DNA of 64,000 nt from an uncultured Holophagales bacterium (GCA_964561935.1 CAZLQX010000003.1:66848-130847), one strand, 5' to 3'. Counted from the first letter of the stretch, positions 41,846 to 49,528 are shown. The notes: generated by a model from the sequence alone, not told the origin. Made by a program: numbers and translations.

Positions 41846-43248
41846 CGCGTCACCGCCGCGTGGAGCGCCTTCACGGAGGCCGCTCGGTCCCTCTCGTCGA
41901 CGACGAAGGAGATGTTGCACTCGGAGGAGCCCTGGGCGATCGCTTCCACGTTCACTCCCGCGCGCGCGACGGCGGCGAAGACCTTCGCCGCGATCCCGAC
42001 GGTGCCGCGCATCCCGTCCCCGACGGCCGCGACGACGGCGACGGGCGAACGCGCCGCCACGCCGTCGATCGAGCCGACGAGCTTCTCGTACCGGAACTCG
42101 TCCGCGAGCGCGGCCGCGACCCGCGCGCGGTCCGCCTCGGGGAGGACGAGGGCGATGTTCTGCTCGGAGGAGGCCTGGGAGATCATGACGACGGAGGCGC
42201 CGAGCCGCGCCGTCGTCTGGAAGACGCGCGCCGCGATCCCCGGGACGCCGCTCATCCCCTTCCCGTCGAGCGAGAGGAGGCAGAGGCCGGAGACGGAGGT
42301 CACGGCCCGGATGCCGGGACGCGGGTCCCCCTTCTCGGAGATCGTCGTCCCGGGGCCGTCCGGGGCGAACGAGTTCCGGATGACGAGAGGGATCCGGGCG
42401 GCGATCGCGGGGAGGACGGCGGGGAAGTGGAGGACCTTCGCGCCGAAGTAGGTCATCTCCGCCGCCTCGCGGTACGAAAGGCGCGTCAGGAGCCGCGCGC
42501 CCGGGACGATCCTCGGGTCGGCCGTCAGGACGCCGTCGACGTCGGTCCAGATGACGACCTCGCGCGCGGAGAGGGCCGCCCCGAGGAGCGCCGCCGTCGT
42601 GTCGGAGCCGGAGCGGCCGAGCGTCGTCGTCTCGCCCTCCGCGGAGCGCGCGACGAACCCGGTCACGACCGGGACGACCCCGCGCGCGAGGAGGCGCCGG
42701 AGGACGCGTCGGACGCGGGGGTCGGAGCGCTTCCGGTCGCACGTCGCCGCGCCGTGCCGCCCATCGGTGACGAGGAGCTCCCGCGCGTCGACGGGGCGGG
42801 CCGGGACGCCGAGAGCCGAAAGGGCCGCCGCGAGGAGCGGCGTGGAGAGCCGTTCGCCGAAGGAGGCGACGAGGTCGGTCACGCGGGGCGTCCGCTCGCG
42901 CAGGAGCGAGATGCCGGCGAGCGCGGTCTCGAGCTCGGCGAGCGGGGCGGGGTCGAAGCGGACGGCGGAGCCCGTGGCGGCGGCGACGCCCGCGGCCGCG
43001 GCGCGGTGCCGCTCGCCGAGGGCGGCGACGGCGCGGCGGGCCGGGGCGAGGCGTCCCCGCTCGGCGTCGTGCGCGGCGCCGAGGAGGACGTCGGTCACGC
43101 CTCCCATGGCCGAGGCGACGGCGACGAGGCGGCGCCGCCGCGCGGCCGCGGCGAGGAGGCCTGCGGCGCGGACGATCCTCTCCGCGTCGCCGAGCGACGT
43201 GCCGCCGAGCTTGTGGACGGCGACGGGGCGGTCACTCGCTCTCGGCAA
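41842..43248 (-). CDS. lysC: aspartate kinase with C-terminal ACT domains
   Basis: TTG start (…KLGGTSLGD). Has an AA_kinase fold and two ACT domains. It overlaps the upstream transposase-like gene by 17 nt. Confidence 0.85.
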   Translation of the reverse strand: MPRASDRPVAVHKLGGTSLGDAERIVRAAGLLAAAARRRRLVAVASAMGGVTDVLLGAAHDAERGRLAPARRAVAALGERHRAAAAGVAAATGSAVRFDPAPLAELETALAGISLLRERTPRVTDLVASFGERLSTPLLAAALSALGVPARPVDARELLVTDGRHGAATCDRKRSDPRVRRVLRRLLARGVVPVVTGFVARSAEGETTTLGRSGSDTTAALLGAALSAREVVIWTDVDGVLTADPRIVPGARLLTRLSYREAAEMTYFGAKVLHFPAVLPAIAARIPLVIRNSFAPDGPGTTISEKGDPRPGIRAVTSVSGLCLLSLDGKGMSGVPGIAARVFQTTARLGASVVMISQASSEQNIALVLPEADRARVAAALADEFRYEKLVGSIDGVAARSPVAVVAAVGDGMRGTVGIAAKVFAAVARAGVNVEAIAQGSSECNISFVVDERDRAASVKALHAAVTR

Positions 43249-44173
43249 GGAGCCTCTTCTCCAGCTCGTCGAGCGTCGGACGGAGCGCCTTCCAGCGCCC
43301 CTCCCTGACGTCGCCGAGGACGTTGCTGACGCGCGCCGGCCTCACGCCGAACGCCTCGCCGACCTCGCGGCCGGAGAGGCCGGTGAGCCGCCGCGAGAGC
43401 CAGATCGCGGCGACCTTCGCCGCGTGGGCGTCGGACCGCCCGAGGCCGGTCTCGGGGACGCCGAAGCGCGCCGAGACGGCCGACTTCACGCGCGAGAGCT
43501 CGACGGCGCCGGGCCGGGGACGGCCCGCGGCAGGCGGCGTGAGGAGGAGCGCGCGGGCCTCGCGGGCGAACTCGGGGCTCCCGACGACGAGACCCGGGAG
43601 GGCGCGCTCGCGAAGCGGCCGGATGTTGCGGGTCCCCGAGACGAGCCGCCGGTAGCGCTCGCGCGCCCGCGGCCGGGCCGGGGAGAGGCGCCGGAGCGTC
43701 GCGTCGACCGTGAGCCAGGCGGGCCGCTCGGAGAGCCCGGCGATGGCGGGGGCGCTCGAGTAGCGCCACTCGAGGGCGGCGCGCGCGAGGCGCGCCCTCA
43801 CGGGGGCGAGGGCGACGACGCGCGCCGCCTCGAGGAAGGCCGTCGCGGGGTCGACGAGGAGCGAGCGGAAGCGCCCGTCGAAGAGCGCCCCGGAGCGGCC
43901 GTGCCGGCGGTTGAAGGCCTGGGCGTAGCGCCCCCCGAGGGCGCGCATGCCGGCCGAGAGGTTCGGCGCAGGCGTCTCGAGGAGGAGCTCGACGGAGGAG
44001 CCGAGGAGGGCGTAGGCGTGGACGAGCCAGCCCCGCTCCTCGGCGGTCCGTCCGAGGTCGAGGAGGAAGCGGTCCCGGTCCGCGTCATCCCGGAAGAGCG
44101 GGCTCCGCTCCGGCGCGCGCCATGCGACGTGGTGCACCGCGCCTGCGAGCTCGAGACGGGGAGGGCGGGACAT
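43232..44173 (-). CDS. Y1 (IS200/RayT, COG1943-like) transposase-derived protein fused to DnaA-C-type HTH; HUH and Tyr motifs substituted
   Basis: N-terminus reads HHVAWRAPERSPLFRDDADRDRFLLDL…AYALLGSSVELLL…GGRYAQAFNRRHGRSGALFDGRFRS. The C-terminus reads …AAKVAAIWLSRRLTGLSGREVGEAFGVRPARVSNV (Bac_DnaA_C-like). Confidence 0.7.
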   Translation of the reverse strand: MSRPPRLELAGAVHHVAWRAPERSPLFRDDADRDRFLLDLGRTAEERGWLVHAYALLGSSVELLLETPAPNLSAGMRALGGRYAQAFNRRHGRSGALFDGRFRSLLVDPATAFLEAARVVALAPVRARLARAALEWRYSSAPAIAGLSERPAWLTVDATLRRLSPARPRARERYRRLVSGTRNIRPLRERALPGLVVGSPEFAREARALLLTPPAAGRPRPGAVELSRVKSAVSARFGVPETGLGRSDAHAAKVAAIWLSRRLTGLSGREVGEAFGVRPARVSNVLGDVREGRWKALRPTLDELEKRLLAESE

Positions 44174-44251
44174 GCGCGGCGATTCTAGTGGGAAGGGGCC
44201 GCCGGTCCCCCCGCGCGCCCGGCGGTACGATGCCCGCACCACGAGGGAACG

Positions 44252-46825
44252 ATGGACGACGGGACGCGCGCGCGAGGGGTGAGGTGCGAGGCGCCGCCCG
44301 GCTGGGCGGAGGCGACCGCGCGCCGCGGCGCCACGGACCCTCTCGCCGCGCGGCTCGCCGAGGGAGGGCGGCTCGCCCCGCTCCGCTCCCTCCGCCTCGA
44401 GCCGCGACGCGGAGCGGGAGCGGGGACGGCGCGCCTCCACCTCCCCGAAGGGTCGGGGGACGTCGTGGTCGTCCTTCGCCAGCCGTCGGGCGCGCTCTCG
44501 ATCCACCGTCCCGAGGCGGGTGGGGCGTCGCGGCGCGGGGGCGCGACCGTCGACCTCCCCCTCCTCGCGCCGCGGGCCCGGCGTGCCGGGGAGGCGCCCC
44601 GCGGAGCCGTCGTCCTCGTCCTGGCCGCCGCCGCGCGCGTCGAGGCGCGCGCCGCGCGAACGCTCGCCCGCGTCTTCGAGGAGGCCGCGTTCCGGAGGGC
44701 CGGGCTCGTCGAGGGGCTCGTCCACGCCACGCCCGAGGGCTTCCGCGAGGGCCGGCTCGCCGCCGCACCGAGGGACCTCCTCGCGGCGCCCCCCGCGCGG
44801 AACCTCCTTCTCCTCCACGGCACCTTCTCGTCCACGGCCGCCGCGTTCGCGGGCCTCGCCCGGAGCGGCGTCCTCCCGGCGCTCGCGCCCCGCTACGGCG
44901 GCCGCGTCGTCGGATTCGACCACTTCACCGTGAGCCGGACGCCCGGGGAGACCGCGCGGAGGCTCGCTTCCGCGCTGCCGGCCGGCGGGATCTTCCTTTT
45001 CGACGTCGTCGCCCACTCGCGCGGGGGCCTCGTTCTCCGGACGCTCGTCGAGAGCCCCGGCCGGGTCGGGCCGTGTGCCGGCCGGTTCACCGCGGGGAGC
45101 GTCGTTCTCGCCGGGGTCCCGAATCTCGGCACGCCCCTCGCCTCACCCGACCGCTGGGAGCTCGCGCTCGCGGGCTGGCTGAACCTCTTCGACCTCCTCC
45201 CTCCCGCTCCCGCGCCGCTCCTCGGCGCCTTCGTCGTGGAGGCGCTCCTCTGGCTCGCGCGTCGCGTCACGACGCTCCTCCCCGGCCTCGCCGCGATGGA
45301 CCCGCACGGCGGGACGATCGCGGAGCTCGGCCGGAGCGCCCGGCCGGAGGCCTACTCGGCGATCGCGGCGCGCCACGAGGCGCGCGGAGCGCTCGCGCTC
45401 CGGCTCCTCGACGCCGGCGTCGGCTGCTTCTTCGGAGAGCCGAACGACCTCGTCGTCCCGACGGACGGCTGCGCGTCGCTCTCGCGGGACGGCACCGCAC
45501 GCGTCGCCGACGATCGGGTCGCGCTCCTCGGAACGAGCGGGGCGCCGGCGAGCCACTTCGACCTCCTCTCCTGCGAGGAGGGGGCGGCGTTCGTCGTCGC
45601 CGCGCTCGGCGGCGGGGGCGGGCCGGGCGGTCGCCGGGGAGCGCGGAGGTCGGCTCCCGGCGAGGACCGGGCGGTGCGGCAGGCGCGGCGAAGGCCGGCC
45701 TCCGCGGCTCGCGGCGGCGCGTCGCCCGCGCGTCTCGGCGAGCCGCGGCGCGAGGCGCTGGAGCTGACCCTCCTCCCCGGAGACCGGCGCGACGCGACCG
45801 CCCTCCTGTTCGCCAGATTCGGCGCGGCGCGCGCCGTTGCGGAGGTTCCGCGGAAGGGAGAGGCGTGGAGGGAGATCATCCGGGGACACGAGCGCCTCCG
45901 CGCCCACTACGACGGCGACGGGCGGCCGCTCCCGCCGGCGGCCGCGCTCGAGCGCTGGGGGGCGCTCCTCTTCGAGACCCTCTTCCCCGGCGAGGTGCGG
46001 AGGCTCTGGGACGCCGCGCGCGGGGCCGCGGGGGGCGTCCCGACGGACGTCGTCTTCACGTCGCTCCTCGACTGGGTCGCCGACAAGCCGTGGGAGCTCG
46101 CGTTCGACCCTCACCGCCGCGCGTGGCTCGCCGCGACCGAGGCGTGCTTCGTGAGGAACGTCGTCACGGCGATCCCGTGCGAGGCGCGGCCGCGCCGCCG
46201 CGGGAAGCTCGCGATCGTCGTCGCGGCGGCGCAGCCGGCGGGCCTGACGCCCCTCTCCTGGGAGGAGGAGGCCGAGGCGGTCCGGGCGGGGCTCGCGCCG
46301 CTCTCCGCCGCCGGCCTCGCCCGGATCCGCGTCGAGCGGGCCGTGACCGTCGAGGCGCTCCACCGTCTCGTCGCGGACGGGCCGTGCGACGTCCTCCACT
46401 TCGTCGGCCACGGCGCGTGGGACGCGGAGCGGAGGGTCGGGGCGCTCCTCTTGGAGTCCGCCTCCGGAGGCGCGGCGCCCGTCGAGGCGCCCGTCCTCCG
46501 ATCGCTTCTCGCGGGACGGGGTCTTTCGCTCGTCGTCCTGAACGCCTGCCAGAGCGCCCGCGGGAGCCGGTCCGACCTCGCCCGGGGGGTCGCGCCCGCG
46601 CTCGTCGCCGCGGGGGTACCGGCCGTCGTCGCGAACCAGTTCAGCGTCCTCGACGCCGCTGCGCTCGTCTTCGCGCGGGAGCTCTACCGGTCGCTCGCCC
46701 TCGGGCGGGCGCTCGGCGACGCGGCGCGCGAGGCGCGGCTCGCGGTGAGGTGCGACGCCGCGTGCGGGCCTCTCGACTGGGCCGTGCCGGTCGTCTACGC
46801 GCGAGACCCCGGCGCCGTCCTCTGA
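44252..46825 (+). CDS. fusion protein: N-terminal alpha/beta-hydrolase (lipase/PGAP1/DUF676-like, AHSRGG nucleophile elbow) plus C-terminal CHAT (caspase-like His-Cys) domain
   Basis: ATG with GAGGG upstream. N-terminal region has LLLLHGTFSST…DVVAHSRGGLV. C-terminal region has KLAIVVAAAQP…LHFVGHGAWD…LVVLNACQSA. Confidence 0.75.
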   Translation: MDDGTRARGVRCEAPPGWAEATARRGATDPLAARLAEGGRLAPLRSLRLEPRRGAGAGTARLHLPEGSGDVVVVLRQPSGALSIHRPEAGGASRRGGATVDLPLLAPRARRAGEAPRGAVVLVLAAAARVEARAARTLARVFEEAAFRRAGLVEGLVHATPEGFREGRLAAAPRDLLAAPPARNLLLLHGTFSSTAAAFAGLARSGVLPALAPRYGGRVVGFDHFTVSRTPGETARRLASALPAGGIFLFDVVAHSRGGLVLRTLVESPGRVGPCAGRFTAGSVVLAGVPNLGTPLASPDRWELALAGWLNLFDLLPPAPAPLLGAFVVEALLWLARRVTTLLPGLAAMDPHGGTIAELGRSARPEAYSAIAARHEARGALALRLLDAGVGCFFGEPNDLVVPTDGCASLSRDGTARVADDRVALLGTSGAPASHFDLLSCEEGAAFVVAALGGGGGPGGRRGARRSAPGEDRAVRQARRRPASAARGGASPARLGEPRREALELTLLPGDRRDATALLFARFGAARAVAEVPRKGEAWREIIRGHERLRAHYDGDGRPLPPAAALERWGALLFETLFPGEVRRLWDAARGAAGGVPTDVVFTSLLDWVADKPWELAFDPHRRAWLAATEACFVRNVVTAIPCEARPRRRGKLAIVVAAAQPAGLTPLSWEEEAEAVRAGLAPLSAAGLARIRVERAVTVEALHRLVADGPCDVLHFVGHGAWDAERRVGALLLESASGGAAPVEAPVLRSLLAGRGLSLVVLNACQSARGSRSDLARGVAPALVAAGVPAVVANQFSVLDAAALVFARELYRSLALGRALGDAAREARLAVRCDAACGPLDWAVPVVYARDPGAVL

Positions 46826-46834
46826 CTGCGAGCC

Positions 46835-47467
46835 TCAGGCGCCGAGGGAGCCCTTGAGCGCCGCGAGCTCGGCCTCGACGGAGGCGAGCCTCTCCTCGAG
46901 CGCGAGGAGACGGGCCTCGATCGCCGAAGGGCCCGCGGGAGGGAGGGGTCGGCCCGCGGCCGCGACCTCGGGCGCGCCGGAGACGAGGTGGGCCCAGCGC
47001 GCCTCCTTCTGCCCGGGCCGGCGCGGCAGCTCCACCACGAGCGGCTCGGGGTGCGCCGCCATCCCGCGGAGGATCTCCTCGGCCGCCGTGGCGGACGGGA
47101 AAGCGTGCATCCGCTCCGCCCGCGCGCGCAGCTCGGCCGCGGTCTGCGGGCCGCGGAGGAGGAGGAGGGCGAGGAGCGCCTTCTCGGGGCGCCCCGCCTG
47201 CCACTTCTGGTCGAGGTTGTGCTCCCACTTTTCGACCCGCCCGCCCGTCACCTTCCAGGCGAGGACGAGCTCGCGGAGGCGGTCGAGAGCGGCCGTCACG
47301 GCTTCCGCCGACAGCTCCGTGACCGGCTCGCGCGACGTCTTCTGGTTGCAGGCGGCTAGGAGCGCGGGGAGCGTGAGCGGGTAGAGGTCGGGCGTCAGCT
47401 GCTCCTTCTCGAGGAGCGCGCCGAGGACGCGGACCTCGTCGGCATCGAGGAGGCGGGGGAGCCGCAC
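46835..47467 (-). CDS. YceH/DUF480 (UPF0502) family protein
   Basis: N-terminus LDADEVRVLGALLEKEQLTPDLYPLTL is typical of YceH. Has a C-terminal coiled coil. Confidence 0.75.
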   Translation of the reverse strand: MRLPRLLDADEVRVLGALLEKEQLTPDLYPLTLPALLAACNQKTSREPVTELSAEAVTAALDRLRELVLAWKVTGGRVEKWEHNLDQKWQAGRPEKALLALLLLRGPQTAAELRARAERMHAFPSATAAEEILRGMAAHPEPLVVELPRRPGQKEARWAHLVSGAPEVAAAGRPLPPAGPSAIEARLLALEERLASVEAELAALKGSLGA

Positions 47468-49337: not shown

Positions 49338-49518
49338 CGCGCCGCATGCCGCGGGGAGGCTCGTGGCGAGCCTCCCCGATCCGCTCCGGCTTCCCGATCG
49401 AGGGGAGGCGCCGGAGGCGCCGCGGGGAGGCTCGTGGCGAGCCTCCCCGATCCGCTTCGGGGTTCCCGATCGAGGGGAGGCGCCGGAGGCGCCGCGGGGA
49501 CGCTCGTGGCGAGCCTCC
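49338..49518. repeat. REP-like tandem repeat array: about 2.5 copies of a 71-72 bp unit, each with a perfect 11-bp stem / 3-nt loop hairpin
   Basis: Unit: GCCGCGGGGAGGCTCGTGGCGAGCCTCCCCGATCCGCT(C/T)CGG(C/GG)TTCCCGATCGAGGGGAGGCGCCGGAGGC. Copies start at 49338, 49409 and 49481, and the third is partial with one stem mismatch. The array lies between convergent genes. Confidence 0.7.
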
Positions 49519-49528
49519 CCGATCCGCT

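Follow-up and report, generated by a model that had tools for sequence, protein, structure and literature searches.

What might a bacterial protein do that carries a lipase-like alpha/beta hydrolase and a caspase-type protease on one polypeptide chain? This question is raised by a gene at positions 44252-46825 (+) of a 64,000-nucleotide (nt) stretch of DNA from an uncultured Holophagales bacterium (GCA_964561935.1, CAZLQX010000003.1:66848-130847). We call the whole stretch the window, and positions are counted from its first letter unless another locus is named. A first, sequence-only reading had described the product as an unusual fusion of an alpha/beta hydrolase with a CHAT His/Cys protease, either a two-headed effector or a self-processing toxin. 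Here, we report that the product is an ordinary member of a bacterial family that is already known to the databases, that both of its enzymes are predicted to be active, and that five Arg-Gly-type motifs are conserved around its hydrolase. From this evidence, we judge the chances to be about equal, for and against, that the protein is a cytoplasmic, single-chain protease-effector module that is gated by proteolysis.

The coupling of a caspase to an alpha/beta hydrolase is already known in principle. The caspase-superfamily domain in ternary conflict systems was noted in 2020 to occur “always” with a neighboring alpha/beta-hydrolase gene (Kaur et al. 2020, PMC7159879), and the pairing was tested experimentally in 2025 in Lysobacter capsici, where the protease LcCaspase cuts the zymogen LcHydrolase at Arg73 and Arg117, both of them conserved Arg|Gly sites, yielding fragments that are lethal to Escherichia coli (Evans et al. 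2025 preprint, PMC12642450). By HHpred, LcHydrolase is nearest to lipases and oligopeptidases; that study left its substrate unidentified (PMC12642450). In addition, the caspase-like protease of type IV Thoeris has a strict requirement for Arg at P1 (bioRxiv 10.1101/2024.10.24.620036). What is new in the present family is the fused form, the DUF7379 lipase-like warhead, a dedicated immunoglobulin (Ig)-like N-terminal domain, and the five Arg-Gly motifs around the hydrolase.

A Complete Gene Encoding Two Predicted Enzymes

The frame at 44252-46825 is a real gene and the coding frame of this region. It is complete, with 857 amino acids (aa) and a stop codon, as seen from its third-position GC content (GC3, 0.93), a sliding frame plot that is continuous across it, its translation, its Pfam matches, its full-length homologs, and its AlphaFold2 (AF2) model. 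Homologs of 856-871 aa match the protein over 99-100% of its length, and because they align end to end, the start codon is taken to be correct. A Shine-Dalgarno-like sequence, GAGGGA (44243-44248, +), lies just 5' of the ATG, and a promoter scan gave no sigma-70-like promoter. The GC content of the window is about 75%, and long spurious open reading frames (ORFs) are therefore plentiful. A 911-aa ORF in another frame (44122-46857, +), which overlaps the real gene and has an Arg/Pro-rich product, was rejected as such a high-GC artifact; shadow ORFs resembling it are numerous throughout the window.

In gene order, the protein consists of an N-terminal Ig-like domain, the DUF7379 hydrolase, a disordered linker, and the CHAT protease; these assignments, together with those of the active sites, are almost certainly correct. 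The hydrolase domain occupies residues 183-456 (44798-45619, +), including a helical cap or lid at about residues 299-361, and has the alpha/beta-hydrolase fold. The Pfam family DUF7379 (PF24096) matches residues 185-359 with a score of 126.7 bits, where the cut-off is 33 (E 1.4e-36), and the match takes in positions 1-190 of the 191 in the profile. The predicted catalytic residues are Ser256 in the nucleophile elbow AHSRGG (residues 254-259; 45011-45028, +), Asp399 in the motif NDLVVPT (45443-45451, +), and His435 (45551-45559, +). Ser, Asp, and His in this order are canonical for the fold. In an alignment of 61 sequences that covers several phyla, S256, R257, and G258 of the elbow, D399, V401, and P403 around the acid, and H435 are all invariant; the HG oxyanion motif, the elbow, and the triad are invariant across phyla. 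The elbow reads THSRGG in the family consensus and AHSRGG in the window protein.

The structural neighbors of the hydrolase are BlEst2 (6wpx, the best), a Streptomyces lipase, PlaB, Tle4, and RavL, and they fit the lipase or phospholipase activity guessed in the sequence-only reading. RsbQ and KAI2, which are proteins of the alpha/beta fold, are also among the neighbors. The sequence profile of the hydrolase matches RavL (7x2p, E 0.004) and, over only about 125 residues covering the elbow and oxyanion region, PlaB (E 6.5e-4); the alignment brings together the HG motifs and the nucleophile elbows. The AHSRGG elbow falls on the THSTGG of PlaB, whose catalytic Ser85 lies within the THSTG motif (bioRxiv 10.1101/2020.09.01.246603). 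In the literature, no paper was found that mentions the name DUF7379.

The CHAT domain, at residues 503-857 (45758-46822, +), has the caspase-haemoglobinase fold, and Pfam CHAT (PF12770) matches residues 595-847 at 108.3 bits, far above its cut-off of 24 (E 6.3e-31). Its predicted catalytic residues are His720, in the HFVGHG motif (residues 716-721; 46397-46414, +), and Cys766, in the LNACQ motif (46538-46552, +); H716, G719, H720, and G721 of the former and L763, N764, and C766 of the latter are invariant in the 61 sequences. When the CHAT half was used in a single-sequence search of the PDB, it returned noise only, and a profile search was required. Because the Ser256/Asp399/His435 triad and the His720/Cys766 dyad are both invariant in the 61 sequences, both enzymes are predicted to be active. 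The sequence-only reading was right about the hydrolase with its AHSRGG elbow and about the CHAT protease; both Pfam families score far above their cut-offs, and all the motifs that it quoted (LLLLHGTFSST, AHSRGG, HFVGHG, and LNACQS at 763-768) are present. Its boundaries need correction: the hydrolase core extends over about 183-456 and not 190-290, and the C-terminal domain over about 503-857, which is 355 aa and not 250 aa. It also missed residues 1-182, which form a separate, conserved N-terminal module.

The AF2 model, built from 61 homologs with a mean pLDDT of 87.2, lays the chain out as a beta-sandwich (8-130), a helix (132-149), the hydrolase fold (183-456), a disordered segment (457-498), and a caspase-type fold (503-857). 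The disordered segment (45620-45745, +; pLDDT 32-38) is the fast-evolving linker between the hydrolase and CHAT. No signal peptide or transmembrane segment was found in the protein; the N-terminus is charged, and the most hydrophobic 19-residue stretch (hydropathy 1.72) lies inside the CHAT core. Because of this charged N-terminus and the lack of a hydrophobic segment of signal-peptide or membrane type, the protein is predicted to be cytoplasmic.

The Fusion as the Family Norm

Both Pfam domains are found in all but two of the best 120 of 165 homolog clusters, and the two exceptions are one truncated (partial) entry and one entry with CHAT only. These 120 clusters stem from the Thermoanaerobaculia/Holophagales, Vicinamibacteria, Nitrospira, and Planctomycetes. 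When one genome per species was scanned, relatives appeared in at least 430 genomes, mainly from the Acidobacteriota, Nitrospira, Planctomycetota, and Verrucomicrobiota. Several hydrolase-only clusters (such as L009 and L010) were rejected as real architectures and are assembly truncations or frameshifts. Because most relatives carry both domains, and because several of the hydrolase-only cases are frameshifted or truncated, the fusion of DUF7379 with CHAT is the norm of the family and not an oddity. In other words, what had been called an unusual domain fusion is a standard architecture, present in at least 430 species-representative genomes.

Purpose-built domain hidden Markov models, applied to the best 80 loci, separate three classes of fused proteins. 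The class of about 860 aa, to which the window protein belongs, consists of the N-terminal domain (hereafter Ndom), the hydrolase, and CHAT, and is found in the Holophagales and Thermoanaerobaculia. In a class of about 1150 aa, from Nitrospira, Opitutae, and many Acidobacteriota, the C-terminus is extended by a domain of about 220 aa without a Pfam match, which may be a sensor or metal-binding domain. The longest class, at about 1450-1550 aa, ends in a C-terminal TPR-S “sensor” domain, and in one representative a WD40 propeller is added at the N-terminus. The same parts also occur as split genes: at locus L011, two CHAT genes, one of them with a TCAD7 domain, lie directly 5' of an Ndom-hydrolase gene, and at locus L094, one CHAT gene does so. 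At L095, no CHAT gene was found within 7 kb of the Ndom-hydrolase gene. TPR-S and TCAD7 are Pfam families typical of conflict systems and reportedly stem from the analysis of Kaur et al.; neither name stands in the main text of that paper. As a separate observation, the extra domain of the class of about 1150 aa (about residues 930-1150 of P0054; L003, 8001-11468) has a conserved Cys-rich motif, CP-L/F-FYNE ... FC..CR.

Conserved Arg-Gly Motifs around the Hydrolase

Ndom is an Ig-like beta-sandwich at residues 8-130 (44273-44641, +), proposed here to be a pro-domain or regulatory domain. In the AF2 model, it is joined to the hydrolase by a conserved helix at residues 132-149 (44645-44698, +), in which E143 is invariant. 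A profile of Ndom retrieved 338 clusters among 1.84 billion representative proteins, and in the best 150 of these 338, all sequences long enough to be judged have the order Ndom-hydrolase, usually followed by CHAT. One sequence, P0309, appeared to be the sole exception, with Ndom joined to another effector, and was rejected as frameshifted. The most conserved feature of Ndom is a hairpin motif, R76-x-x-S79-G80-A81-x-x-x-H85 (44477-44506, +). The Ndom alignment shows no variation at R76 and S79 and a conservation of 90% or more at G80, A81, and H85; this hairpin might contact one of the two active sites.

Four exposed loops of Ndom carry an Arg-Arg-Gly motif or a variant of it. In the following counts, those out of 61 refer to the 61-sequence alignment and those out of 80 to a wider set. 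Loop 1 (R24 R25 G26; 44321-44329, +) lies in coil with a flanking conservation of 0.44, and R24 and R25 are found in 56/61 and 44/61 sequences, respectively. Loop 2 (R52 R53 G54; 44405-44413, +) connects the strands at 41-51 and 58-64, with R53 in 56/61 and G54 in 49/61. In loop 3 (R94 R95 G96; 44531-44539, +), which is coil with a pLDDT of about 70-84, the aligned Arg is present in 50/61 and 73/80 sequences and is mostly followed by Gly. Loop 4 (R110 R111 A112; 44579-44587, +) is placed just ahead of the strand at 119-126 and the helix at 132-149; R111 is conserved in 57/61 and 80/80, and position 112 is Gly in 46/61. The fifth motif (R461 R462 G463 A R465 R466; 45632-45649, +) lies in the disordered linker, where the R465 column holds Arg in 56/61 sequences (75/80 in the wider set) and the next residue is Gly in 35/61, and where the flanking conservation (0.33) is the lowest of all the conserved Arg residues. 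R24, R53, R94, R111, and R465 are the sole Arg residues with at least 80% conservation that lie in coil and have weakly conserved flanks (0.33-0.44).

The mean identity is 34% in Ndom, 17.6% in the linker, and 49-52% in the enzyme domains, and the Arg motifs persist in these fastest-evolving parts of the protein. Among the Arg-X dipeptides of the N-terminal regions, Arg-Gly shows the strongest over-representation (292 occurrences where 128 are expected), with a z-score that is inflated because the sequences are related. The constant core of the motif is Arg-Gly, because the longest relatives read T/S/V-R-G in place of R-R-G. Loop 4 is the sole site retained as R-G or R-S in all of the split-gene and CHAT-less relatives examined. 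In P0152 (L095, 6871-8274), four Arg positions are retained and the Gly that follows each has been lost (R-S, R-H, R-A, and R-S). This single case is consistent with relaxed selection on cleavage sites where no protease is present.

Genomic Context

In the window, the neighbors of the gene are a threonine-synthase-like gene, a GHMP kinase, an aspartate kinase, a divergently transcribed gene, a DUF480 gene, a methyltransferase, and a histidine phosphatase of the phosphoglycerate-mutase-like type. A related genome (L001) retains this gene order, save for one extra acetyltransferase gene, and its protein is 76% identical over the whole length and 89% identical in CHAT. The extra gene (L001, 10633-11577) encodes a 314-aa acetyltransferase-like protein and lies between the DUF7379-CHAT and DUF480 genes. 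Because these two genes are only about 10 nt apart in the window (46826-46835), the difference is best seen as the insertion or deletion of one gene in a conserved synteny.

Two further observations concern the surroundings. The divergent upstream gene (43232-44173, -) encodes 313 aa without any Pfam family above its cut-off; a weak match to a DnaA-type helix-turn-helix (E 0.017) was seen, and by eye the N-terminus of its product, AVHHVAWR...YALLGSSVELLLETP, resembles IS200/REP-associated tyrosine-transposase-like proteins. The end of the aspartate-kinase gene overlaps with this gene, and the syntenic L001 has a conserved copy of it. In the intergenic region after the histidine-phosphatase gene, at 49348-49528, there is a 72-nt tandem repeat with 2.5 copies that are 96% identical, and it holds internal inverted-repeat-like GGGGAGGC/GCCTCCCC elements.

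More distant relatives have other neighborhoods. On the megaplasmid of Ruegeria pomeroyi DSS-3 (NC_006569.1; L092, 6362-13166), a 966-aa homolog with DUF7379 and CHAT, SPO_RS20450 (WP_051420469.1), adjoins an IS5 transposase; behind it come genes for a 986-aa SIR2_2+AAA_21 protein and a hypothetical protein, and the region looks like a defense islet. On a plasmid of Azotobacter chroococcum HR1, the neighbors of the relative include a type I restriction-modification system, Fic genes, and transposases; the gene at L093 (6479-11866) in this strain encodes 1795 aa with two hydrolase regions, one DUF7379 and one LCAT/PGAP1-like, and CHAT. A planctomycete relative has a helicase/DUF559 gene and several peptidases for neighbors. 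In a member of the Pirellulaceae (L006, 5131-5943), the fused DUF7379-CHAT gene is preceded, at a distance of 58 nt, by a gene for a 270-aa Peptidase_C14 (caspase) protein, which hints at a two-protease cascade in some members. A methyltransferase downstream of the gene in both the window and Nitrospira was considered as a shared partner and rejected, as the two are not homologous.

A Possible Proteolysis-Gated Effector and Its Alternatives

If the protein is a proteolysis-gated module, its hydrolase would be a zymogen, with the N-terminal domain and the tether to CHAT holding it inactive. Once active, CHAT would cut after the conserved arginines, either in cis or between copies, and the cuts would strip off the N-terminal domain and the tether, so that the freed hydrolase could attack an ester substrate, most likely membrane phospholipid. 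The cell would stop growing or die, as happens in abortive infection and in conflict systems. If CHAT behaves like other enzymes of the caspase fold, it would probably need to oligomerize to become active, and in the longer relatives activation would probably come through the appended TPR-S, WD40, or uncharacterized C-terminal sensor domains. In the form without a sensor, that part might be played by the exposed loops, as a tripwire that a foreign or stress-activated protease cuts; alternatively, concentration or oligomerization alone may suffice. The most specific version of this proposal is a self-contained suicide switch, in which a fast-evolving Ig-like pro-domain presents four Arg-Gly “fuse” loops, with a fifth in the linker, and autoproteolysis frees a PlaB-like phospholipase against the membrane of its own cell. 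We hold this version tentatively and think it somewhat more likely to be wrong than right.

Several lines of evidence favor a proteolysis-gated module: both catalytic sets are invariant, Ndom accompanies this hydrolase and no other effector, the fused and split forms of the family show its modularity, some relatives lie in defense-like or mobile contexts, and the published caspase-hydrolase pairs follow a comparable logic. The earlier suggestion of a self-processing toxin gains support from the five Arg-Gly-type motifs, which match the R|G sites of LcHydrolase and are putative cleavage sites. The Arg specificity of CHAT we infer from just two sources, these conserved motifs and the published bacterial caspases.

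Other observations weigh against it. The pTM of the AF2 model is 0.59, and the arrangement of the domains relative to each other is uncertain. The window protein is a minimal form in which Pfam finds no sensor domain (SAVED, TPR, etc.), and its gene stands among housekeeping genes, a threonine operon included, with no mobile or defense genes near. PADLOC gives no known defense system, only weak partial CHAT matches; its SAVED_CHAT match covers model positions 101-270 of 498, in the CHAT part only. No conserved partner gene is common to six contexts from different phyla. With regard to the motifs, site 4 in the window protein reads R-R-A and not R-R-G, and the Arg motifs flank the hydrolase fold, whereas LcHydrolase is cut inside it; because the sites lie before and after the fold, the geometry of licensing would differ from that of LcHydrolase. 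The conserved Arg-Gly loops could instead be structural or bind an anionic ligand. Moreover, DUF7379 is likened to LcHydrolase by the published description and not by sequence.

The conservation of both active sites would also suit a protein with two independent warheads, in which CHAT is a promiscuous Arg-specific executioner that degrades the proteins of the cell, the hydrolase is an accessory enzyme or another toxin that is constitutively competent, and the Arg-Gly loops, being structural or ligand-binding, remain uncut; this corresponds to the two-headed effector of the sequence-only reading. A bacterial caspase-like protease is known to kill by indiscriminate cleavage after Arg (bioRxiv 10.1101/2024.10.24.620036), and caspases without an effector can protect against phage (PMC12642450). 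However, this explanation leaves unaccounted for both the constant Ig-like domain with its Arg-Gly islands, which stays beside the hydrolase even when CHAT is separate, and the conserved Arg in the disordered linker; in addition, an unregulated cytoplasmic phospholipase would be toxic to its own cell. We therefore consider it unlikely, while ranking it above the other alternatives. One of these would invert the roles, so that the hydrolase is a receptor-like module that senses a ligand and controls CHAT, the sole effector. RsbQ and KAI2 are among the structural neighbors, certain receptors of the alpha/beta fold retain the triad, and the minimal form has no other sensor domain to offer; against this, neither the triad nor the HG oxyanion motif nor the elbow varies across phyla, and the top structural neighbors are true lipases and phospholipases, so that we find a purely sensory hydrolase quite improbable.

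The surroundings of the window gene raise a different possibility, namely a housekeeping or developmental role, such as regulated lipid or membrane remodeling coupled to a processing protease in the manner of HetF. HetF is a CHAT protein that acts in cyanobacterial cell division and differentiation. The chromosomal site among biosynthetic genes, the conserved synteny and high identity in the related genome (76% overall, 89% in CHAT), and the absence of a mobile element, CRISPR array, or known defense gene near the window gene are as expected for such a role, and the NCBIfam HetF model gives a weak match. This match (E 0.0011) is confined to the CHAT core and, at 17 bits, is far under the cut-off of 1200. 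Furthermore, the relatives are patchy across phyla and lie in unrelated neighborhoods, some on plasmids beside restriction-modification, SIR2-ATPase, and insertion sequence (IS) genes, and their fusions to TPR-S, WD40, and TCAD7 follow the pattern of conflict systems; a housekeeping role thus appears improbable, a little less so than a purely sensory hydrolase. The resemblance to Tle, PlaB, and RavL might finally suggest a lipase toxin directed at bacteria or eukaryotes and either secreted or injected, as by the type VI secretion system (T6SS), with CHAT serving for maturation or autoprocessing after delivery. The window protein has no signal peptide or transmembrane segment and no trafficking domain by Pfam, and no secretion-system or immunity gene is near in the six genomic contexts, which makes this the least probable of the explanations, and a very improbable one.

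What the Family Would Add

Proteolysis-gated effectors are an emerging major logic of bacterial immunity, parallel to the caspase-driven death of animal cells. If the proteolysis-gated module is real, this family would add to that logic a form in which one gene encodes the fused protease, a lipase or phospholipase warhead, and a dedicated pro-domain, and which is widespread in little-studied phyla of soil and water. It would be a bacterial one-protein analog of a caspase-plus-executioner cascade, with a licensing step unlike the published internal double cut. DUF7379 and a new N-terminal domain family would gain a function, and the cleavage specificity of a CHAT protease would be defined. If it is not real, the conserved Arg-Gly loops would still be a functional surface that needs an explanation. 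The family also offers a clean test system, in which one gene holds three active-site or cleavage elements that can be mutated, and a homolog exists in the culturable Ruegeria pomeroyi DSS-3.

Comparison with Known Systems

Among the lipases, PlaB of Legionella pneumophila (6zth) can be aligned in sequence over its N-terminal half only, and its C-terminal bilobed beta-sandwich, which is required for activity and tetramerization, and its control through an NAD(H)-linked tetramer are both missing in the window protein. PlaB is also surface-exposed, whereas the window protein is predicted to be cytoplasmic. In the case of BlEst2 of Bacillus licheniformis (6wpx), the title of the structure deposit, as quoted in PMC10816834, speaks of a propeptide form inhibited by beta-sandwich domains. 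The BlEst2 sandwich is C-terminal, there is no fused protease, the sequence identity is 14%, and the likeness of Ndom to this sandwich is generic Ig-like at most, so that BlEst2 serves as a mere analogy for the inhibition of a lipase by a sandwich domain. Tle4, of the T6SS Tle family, is similar in fold only, and the window gene has no delivery signal and no immunity or secretion neighbors.

Among the proteases, the TPR-CHAT protein Csx29 (of Craspase) and the SAVED-CHAT proteins differ from the window protein, which lacks both TPR and SAVED domains and whose gene has no cas genes nearby; a search for a CRISPR-like array in 30-60 kb of the window found none. The proposed substrate differs as well, since the window CHAT would cut the protein of which it is itself a part. 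The type IV Thoeris protease and PCaspase share with it membership of clan CD, and their role in bacterial immunity and strict P1 Arg requirement fit the Arg motifs of the window protein. They belong, however, to a Peptidase_C14-like subfamily and not to CHAT, have no fused hydrolase, are triggered by small-molecule signals or an upstream protease, and are promiscuous.

The closest parallel is the pair of LcCaspase and LcHydrolase. In the window protein, everything is on one polypeptide, the protease is of the CHAT type, DUF7379 stands behind a dedicated Ig-like domain, and there is no sensor domain; its Arg-Gly motifs flank the fold, four before it and one after, whereas the LcHydrolase sites lie within. 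The taxa differ too: the DUF7379-CHAT family is found in Acidobacteriota, Nitrospira, and Planctomycetota, and the Lc-type systems in Actinobacteria and Pseudomonadota. In both cases, a Cys protease of the caspase superfamily is genetically coupled to a lipase-like alpha/beta hydrolase, the chain that bears the hydrolase has conserved Arg-Gly motifs, and the protease is joined in relatives to diverse sensors, including TPR-S and WD40 (beta-transducin repeats).

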